Shown in pieces: positions 20,091 through 20,233 of a stretch of 30,191 nt of DNA. The translations under genes were made by a program, and so were the position numbers. This stretch comes from a virus, in UHGV virus genome UHGV-0176705; one strand, given 5' to 3'. How positions within the stretch are numbered: position 1 is the first letter of the stretch; every line of letters begins with the position of its first letter. The notes under the pieces are model-generated. The model was not told where the DNA came from. It worked only from the letters and a program-made list of their open reading frames with translations, and did not search any database.

Positions 20091-20233
20091 GGGGGCGTAA
20101 AAACGCCCCAGAAGTTTATGGTAAAAAAATAACAGAAGGTTTAAAAAAGAAAAGACAAAAATGTCTTTCTTAATGCAGTGACGTGAGGGCGTCACCCACA
20201 TGTTATGAGGAGATAAATATCTCCTCATAACAT
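20091..20233. terminator. Cluster of terminator hairpins between convergent Q and porin genes
   Basis: GGGGCG-taaaaa-CGCCCC at 20092-20109 (T-run on the minus strand), AGACA-ttttt-TGTCT and GTGACG-ccctca-CGTCAC hairpins, and a 34-bp perfect palindrome ATGTTATGAGGAGATA-aa-TATCTCCTCATAACAT at 20200-20233 followed by CTTTTTATT on the plus strand. Confidence 0.6.

Follow-up and report, generated by a model that had tools for sequence, protein, structure and literature searches.

Between a Q antiterminator gene and a porin gene, which face each other in a prophage, lies a 34-bp perfect palindrome, and the question raised by this locus is which of the two converging transcripts the palindrome serves, and in what capacity. 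The preliminary description had considered a bidirectional terminator, an RNase III site or a protein-binding site. The palindrome, ATGTTATGAGGAGATA-AA-TATCTCCTCATAACAT, indeed possesses 16-nt arms that are 100% complementary to each other around a 2-nt centre, and it is the longest of the close-spaced inverted repeats in the window, that is, in the whole 30,191-nt stretch of DNA that was analysed. Its occurrence is far beyond chance: dinucleotide shuffles (n = 100) contained no match to it at three or fewer mismatches. The position 19 nt 3' of the porin stop codon (20253-20255, minus strand) agrees with the earlier statement that the palindrome immediately follows the porin gene. Calculation of the folding energy, which had been proposed as a check, yielded 15 bp with a 4-nt loop for the RNA of the plus strand (-21.6 kcal/mol, z = -7.6) and 17 bp for that of the minus strand (-24.4 kcal/mol, z = -7.0), the stem thus being 2 bp longer than on the plus strand.

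The window is a lambdoid prophage. Its gene content includes integrases, a CI-like S24 repressor and replication genes, followed by Q and then by the porin gene, beyond which a DNA methylase gene, a gene for tRNA-Arg and the holin, endolysin and terminase genes are located. Q (plus strand) and the porin gene (minus strand) are convergent and leave a 192-nt spacer that is rich in hairpins (fold z = -8.9 on the porin strand). The junction region of the two genes was matched in 3,508 of 5,426 complete E. coli genomes. The features of the locus are compiled in Table 1. The left end of the window (177-3645, plus strand) carries two large ORFs with HEF_HK/HATPase_c and Response_reg_2 domains, i.e. 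an unusual kinase/receiver pair, followed by two tyrosine integrase genes (4172-5443 and 7566-8774), both on the minus strand; this arrangement suggests two adjacent integrated elements. In addition, the region that separates the methylase gene from the lysis genes contains a second perfect palindrome, CGATATGGGAA/TTCCCATATCG, at 23385-23406 (11+11, no spacer), 13 nt ahead of tRNA-Arg(tct) (23419-23495).

Table 1. Features at the junction of the Q and porin genes and in its surroundings (positions refer to the window).
Feature	Coordinates	Strand	Remarks
Q antiterminator gene, QuuD type, 127 aa	19677..20060	plus	Phage_antitermQ E = 1.4e-52; 83% identity to K-12 QuuD
Intrinsic terminator of the porin/IpeX-like transcript, GGGGCGU-UUUU-ACGCCCC then CUUUUUAUUC	20084..20109	minus	terminator-like site 20109->20092
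IpeX-like non-coding RNA region, porin stop codon to end of terminator U tract, ~171 nt	20085..20255	minus	covariance model
Conserved block AAACCUUCUGUUAU, predicted to be unpaired	20129..20142	minus	invariant columns; unpaired in minimum-energy folds
Helix 3, AAGAAAGACA-UUUU-UGUC(U)UUUCUU	20147..20171	minus	DLP12 type: other hairpin AGAAGCA/UGCUUCU at the same place
Helix 2, GGUGACG-CCCUCA-CGUCACU	20177..20196	minus	2 of 7 pairs change on both sides
Perfect palindrome	20200..20233		minus: helix 1 of the porin 3'UTR / IpeX-like RNA; plus: stem-loop of a terminator-like site
U tract ATCTTTTTATT	20234..20244	plus	follows the stem on plus only; minus reads as A tract AAAAAGAU, 5' of the hairpin
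Prophage porin gene, nmpC/lc family, 365 aa	20253..21350	minus	Porin_1 E = 1e-154; 97% identity to K-12 NmpC fragment 1
Late promoter module, PR'-like TTTACG-16-TATGAT + conserved leader + tR'-like GC hairpin + U tract	21596..21680	plus	promoter-like site 21596-21623

The porin gene provides a first clue. Castillo-Keller, Vuong and Misra reportedly described in 2006 an RNA, IpeX, that is derived from the 3'UTR downstream of nmpC/lc and represses OmpC and OmpF. According to later accounts, IpeX is a 167-nt sRNA of the cryptic prophage DLP12 (qsr') and of phage PA-2, which is transcribed from the porin promoter together with the porin gene, undergoes processing and represses OmpC/OmpF (PMC12197685, PMC5069750, PMC8065619); its release from a longer precursor by processing is reportedly required (PMC12197685). 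In K-12, ipeX is annotated at 574365-574531 on the reverse strand (167 nt; supplement of PMC8313858), and we find that this span comprises the entire nmpC stop codon (574529-574531) and extends from there to the U tract that follows a GGGGCG...CGCCCC hairpin. A covariance model that was built from four window-type sequences, with four helices specified, matches the window at 20084-20251 as well as the K-12 sequence (L001) at 2865-3029, the latter over the full length with 110 bits and E ~ 4e-26; this K-12 segment coincides with annotated ipeX. The 3'UTR of the window and that of the DLP12 type share ~69-71% nucleotide identity (71.5% over 180 nt to DLP12-type phages by BLAST) and have the four helices in common, with 12 pairs being changed on both sides. 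Thus, given the covariance-model match and the identity to ipeX, the stretch from the porin stop codon to the terminator is, as judged by homology, a counterpart of the sRNA ipeX: the window carries a diverged ipeX allele, of which the palindrome represents helix 1. By analogy, the 171-nt region would share with IpeX the origin from the porin promoter and the processing.

A search of Rfam returned no family for the window region, and neither did it for K-12 ipeX itself, as Rfam holds no IpeX model. Annotation of RNAs of the ipeX type should therefore be missing from the E. coli prophages with a Q-porin junction, which number in the thousands. A weak Rfam match to suhB/mmgR at 20077-20137 (E = 0.08, below threshold) was discarded, as it merely reflects the terminator hairpin. 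The porin coding sequence is 92% identical to K-12 nmpC at the nucleotide level (protein 97%) and the 3'UTR 69%, which places a mosaic boundary at the porin stop codon (20061-20255 vs 20256-21350). None of the 5,426 complete E. coli genomes contains the exact palindrome allele of the window; the metagenome contig L230 comes nearest, with a difference of one base in the stem.

Downstream of helix 1, the predicted RNA continues with further conserved elements. The CCCUCA loop of helix 2 is invariant in all alleles and its stem covaries, being GUGACG/CGUCAC in the window type and GUGGCU/AGCCAC in the DLP12 type. The GC-rich hairpin at the end, close to Q, consists of 7 pairs, 6 of them GC (-14 kcal/mol, z = -4.9), is conserved in all variants and has a U tract on the minus strand only. 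Immediately 5' of the palindrome, at 20234-20253, window-type alleles additionally contain a weak AU hairpin, AUCUUUUU/AAAAAGAU, which is built from the A tract and the stop codon and which the DLP12 type lacks.

To follow the palindrome through related prophages, as had been suggested, 32 distinct versions of the 3'UTR were collected from IMG/VR, metagenomes and E. coli genomes. A loose pattern scan for the palindrome gave mostly chance matches, which were filtered. The versions comprise 14 distinct helix-1 sequences, all of which fold at -14 to -24 kcal/mol. Plain MAFFT alignment puts the two arms out of register between alleles, and a model-guided alignment was used instead. In this alignment, which is fitted to the model from which the pairs are counted, helix 1 has 15 pairs, of which 8 never vary and 7 change on both sides, and 99.5% of the cells pair. 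For the structure as a whole, the observed covariation score was reached by none of 500 shuffles, and partners that were slid out of position pair at only 37-57%. Individual changes can be followed pair by pair. Arm position 6 is A-U in the window, G·U in L230 and G-C in L224, i.e. a stepwise series; the L014/L094 type has lost one base pair via matched 1-nt deletions in both arms; and the apical half GAGAUA/UAUCUC of the window is replaced by GAGGC/GCCUC in the DLP12 type. Altogether, arms of 13, 15 or 16 bp around a centre of 2-4 nt are found among the homologues. From this comparison we conclude that the palindrome is a selected hairpin, which is kept across the 32 variants by compensatory mutations. 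With just two deep clades among the variants, few independent events underlie these counts. Moreover, since a DNA palindrome covaries equally for the RNA of either strand, the covariation cannot tell on which strand the hairpin is selected.

The sequences flanking the stem distinguish the two strands. On the plus strand, the 15 pairs and the loop of 4 nt are followed by the tail ATCTTTTTAT / AUCUUUUUAU, and the U tract AUCUUUUU therein, which reads as an AAAAGAT block on the minus strand, shows no or almost no change in any of the variants. The 10 nt between this AAAAGAU block and the porin stop codon are not conserved. The conserved U tract behind the stem fits a unidirectional intrinsic terminator, and the plus-strand hairpin is thus a candidate Rho-independent terminator for transcription leaving Q. 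As the U tract begins 3 nt past the stem and the stem contains only 5 GC pairs, termination may be inefficient, and N-modified polymerase would ignore the signal. The porin strand continues behind the stem with GUGGGUGACG in the window and with AUAAGUGGCU in the DLP12 type, and a U tract is present in none of the 32 variants; a polymerase arriving from the porin gene should therefore read through the palindrome. It would then transcribe ~140 nt of further conserved, structured RNA before reaching the canonical terminator at 20092-20109. Hence the two terminators are crossed, with the plus-strand one beside the porin stop codon and the minus-strand one beside the Q stop codon, and as a consequence the Q and porin/IpeX transcripts would overlap by ~150 nt. 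The published tables of E. coli 3' ends (supplement of PMC7815308) contain no entry for ipeX, quuD or nmpC. The link to transcript ends proposed in the preliminary description accordingly stands in so far as the hairpin is selected and carries a U tract on the plus strand; that the palindrome terminates both transcripts or that of the porin gene was not borne out.

These observations are best accommodated by a hairpin of dual use at the 3' end of a reverse-oriented porin cassette, which on the minus strand provides helix 1 of an IpeX-like RNA and on the plus strand a terminator behind Q, an explanation that we consider probable. On the minus strand, transcription from the porin promoter would pass the stop codon and the palindrome, at which no U tract is encountered, and end at the GC-rich terminator ~140 nt further on, generating a 3'UTR of ~171 nt that corresponds to IpeX. 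The palindrome would form the first and most stable helix of this RNA (15-17 bp, -21 to -24 kcal/mol), and its likeliest job is structural: as a clamp close to the 5' end, it could guard the released sRNA against 5'-end-dependent attack by RNase E, and/or it could cap the 3' end of the upstream porin mRNA. Cleavage in the AU-rich stretch beside the stop codon would free the sRNA, helix 1 separating the cleavage zone from the functional part downstream. On the plus strand, the stem together with AUCUUUUU may act as Rho-independent terminator for unmodified rightward transcription that leaves Q, which would keep Q transcription from running antisense into the porin gene.

Among the alternatives, the one that survives best, albeit still unlikely in our estimation, assigns a function to the plus strand alone. 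Here, the hairpin would be only an intrinsic terminator, an insulator that was brought along with the reverse-oriented porin cassette, and it would be carried in the porin-sense RNA as a passive passenger without a role in IpeX. Such a scenario would explain why the U tract is present and conserved on the plus strand alone, and why the A tract that it leaves on the minus strand shows stronger conservation than the stretch up to the stop codon, although it has no obvious role in the RNA; also, loci in which PR' directly follows Q lack such a hairpin. It does not account for the additional 2 bp of the minus-strand stem, nor for the location of the K-12 hairpin within the annotated 167-nt ipeX. 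Base pairs that differ in quality between the strands (G·U vs A·C) give a mixed picture: L230, L222 and L173 pair via G·U on the minus strand, equivalent to A·C mismatches on the plus strand, and thus speak against a plus-strand terminator only, whereas L221 and L028 favour the plus strand.

Substrates of RNase III typically provide roughly two turns (~20 bp) of near-perfect double-stranded RNA. The palindrome approaches this with its long and perfect stem of 15-17 bp, and a cut therein could separate the porin mRNA from the sRNA, in keeping with the reported need of IpeX for processing from a longer precursor (PMC12197685). However, the annotation of ipeX begins with the stop codon, so that the complete hairpin lies within it, and stems of the DLP12 type, with only 13 bp and often a bulge, are short for RNase III. 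Altogether, we regard a function as RNase III processing site as quite improbable.

A role as Rho-independent terminator of the porin gene itself, or of both genes, was the leading idea of the preliminary description and has a stable hairpin 19 nt past the stop codon in its favour, but it is very improbable in light of the sequences GUGGGUGACG or AUAAGUGGCU that follow the stem, 0 of 32 variants having a U tract at this place, and of the conserved structured RNA with its own canonical terminator 140 nt downstream. Finally, a palindromic operator for a dimeric DNA-binding protein or a recombination/cruciform site would match the perfect dyad symmetry, but is scarcely tenable since it is the complementarity that is kept and not the sequence, the loop or the spacing: arm lengths range from 13 to 16 bp with a centre of 2-4 nt, 7 of 15 positions change on both arms, the apical half is exchanged altogether, and the palindrome occurs at the Q-porin position only, bar one unrelated chance match of its core in an AT-rich phage.

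A repeated mobile element was rejected as well, as this unrelated hairpin in an AT-rich phage was the only other match to the palindrome core in IMG/VR. A coding function was likewise rejected: a 53-aa ORF starts inside the palindrome at 20228 (minus strand), and its start, frame and length are not conserved among the alleles. The GAGGAG motif in each arm, previously noted as being similar to a Shine-Dalgarno (SD) sequence, does not work as such, because it lacks a start codon at a suitable distance downstream and ORFs across the region are not conserved.

The position of the palindrome behind Q also called for a comparison with tR', the late terminator that is overridden by Q. The Q protein was used to search genome contigs, which served for locating PR' and yielded 12 loci, none of which has a porin gene. 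In the window, the PR'-like module lies beyond the porin gene, 1.4 kb further on the plus strand: the promoter-like site is followed by the leader GTTAAGAGTGGTCACTTTGCCACACAGCTTAAACC and then by a GC hairpin with a U tract. Sequences homologous to this module directly follow Q in porin-less E. coli/Shigella and Xenorhabdus loci and are also present upstream of essD in K-12 DLP12. As the palindrome is situated upstream of PR', it is not tR', and this candidate was dismissed. The direct succession of Q and PR' in porin-less loci further indicates that the porin gene and its 3'UTR were inserted, in reverse orientation, between Q and the promoter that it targets. In the window, the Q gene and its late promoter module are kept apart by this 1.5-kb reverse-oriented porin cassette. 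The late promoter module also contains an inverted repeat, TTTACGTACGTAAA (21596-21680, plus strand).

If the 3'UTR gives rise to an IpeX-like sRNA, its conserved unpaired block might contact target mRNAs. Whole-length RNAduplex predictions between the sRNA and mRNA leaders gave meaningless long, interrupted duplexes, and the tests were confined to the unpaired block. This block, AACCUUCUGUUAU, is invariant and antisense to the SD region of E. coli ompC. In K-12, the plus strand AAATAAAGGGTAATATATAACAGAAGGTTTATA (L001 ~2893-2925) faces the ompC mRNA sequence AAATAAAGG----CATATAACAGAGGGTTAATA at -34..-3, which spans the SD sequence; the match of IpeX to ompC comprises 15 contiguous pairs and 9 more. 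The predicted duplex reaches -26.7 kcal/mol as compared to -13.2 +/- 2.8 kcal/mol for 500 dinucleotide shuffles (0/500). The allele of the window retains a 13-nt core and -18.2 kcal/mol, a value that is reached by 4.4% of the shuffles. The neighbouring sequence UAUUACCCU matches the SD region of ompF in the K-12 and L220 alleles (-18.6 and -21.6 kcal/mol, respectively) and is degenerate in the window. No match of the unpaired block to ompA or to the leader of the phage porin itself was found. Reviews and other secondary literature describe IpeX as having no complementarity to its targets, and its regulatory activity does not rely on complementarity alone (PMC12197685). For the IpeX-like RNA of the window, pairing with ompC is thus to be taken as an in silico prediction. 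The loop CCCUCA of helix 2 is complementary to UGAGGG of the ompF SD sequence and to 5 of 6 nt of the ompC SD sequence, and it could provide a second anti-SD contact.

The predicted overlap of ~150 nt, in which the Q and porin/IpeX transcripts would be perfectly complementary and whose boundary would be set by the palindrome, suggests an additional scenario. The 3' tail of the Q mRNA would then contain a look-alike of the ompC leader, AUAACAGAAGGUU, and might act as a sponge for IpeX or trigger cleavage by RNase III, an idea that we put forward as distinctly doubtful. If true, induction of the prophage would, through the antisense overlap of the Q tail, shut down the phage porin and at the same time put an end to the repression of the host porins.

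Taken together, the element is a new, diverged ipeX-type helix 1 that, according to its flanking sequences, would double as a terminator between convergent genes. On its own, this finding matters little, as the palindrome forms part of a known phage-encoded regulatory RNA and of a routine terminator. It does correct the view that the palindrome terminates the porin gene, and it is useful for annotation, since the covariance model and the alignment define a four-helix family with two diverged alleles. If confirmed, the block antisense to the ompC SD sequence, and to that of ompF in some alleles, would offer a simple base-pairing mechanism for an sRNA that has been described as acting indirectly.

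The element can be compared with three known systems. Intrinsic terminators at convergent gene pairs likewise consist of a stable stem-loop with a U-rich tail and are accompanied by a second, opposite terminator for the other gene. In contrast to one common bidirectional hairpin, the terminators are crossed here and imply a transcript overlap of ~150 nt; moreover, the stem is unusually long and AU-rich and its U tract starts 3 nt after it. Processed sRNAs derived from the 3'UTRs of mRNAs are an established class in enterobacteria. By analogy, the window RNA would share with them the use of the mRNA's own terminator, processing near the stop codon and a conserved unpaired stretch as possible seed; to our knowledge, a perfect 5'-end hairpin of 15-17 bp, as in the window RNA, is not usual among them. 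The closest relative is IpeX of DLP12/PA-2. In both cases, the RNA region begins with the stop codon of a prophage porin gene of the NmpC family, on the same strand and convergent with a Q gene of the quuD type. They are similar in length (171 nt in the window vs 167 nt) and have the same four-helix layout, ending with GGGGCG...CGCCCC and a U tract. Differences are found in helix 1, which is a perfect 16-bp AU-rich palindrome in the window as compared to a 13-bp GGGAGGC/GCCUCCC stem with a bulge in DLP12, in the sequence of helix 3 and in the ompF-complementary segment UAUUACCCU, which has degenerated in the window. The blocks AAAAGAU-AUGUU, AACAU, the CCCUCA loop and AACCUUCUGUUAU, however, are invariant and thus common to both RNAs.
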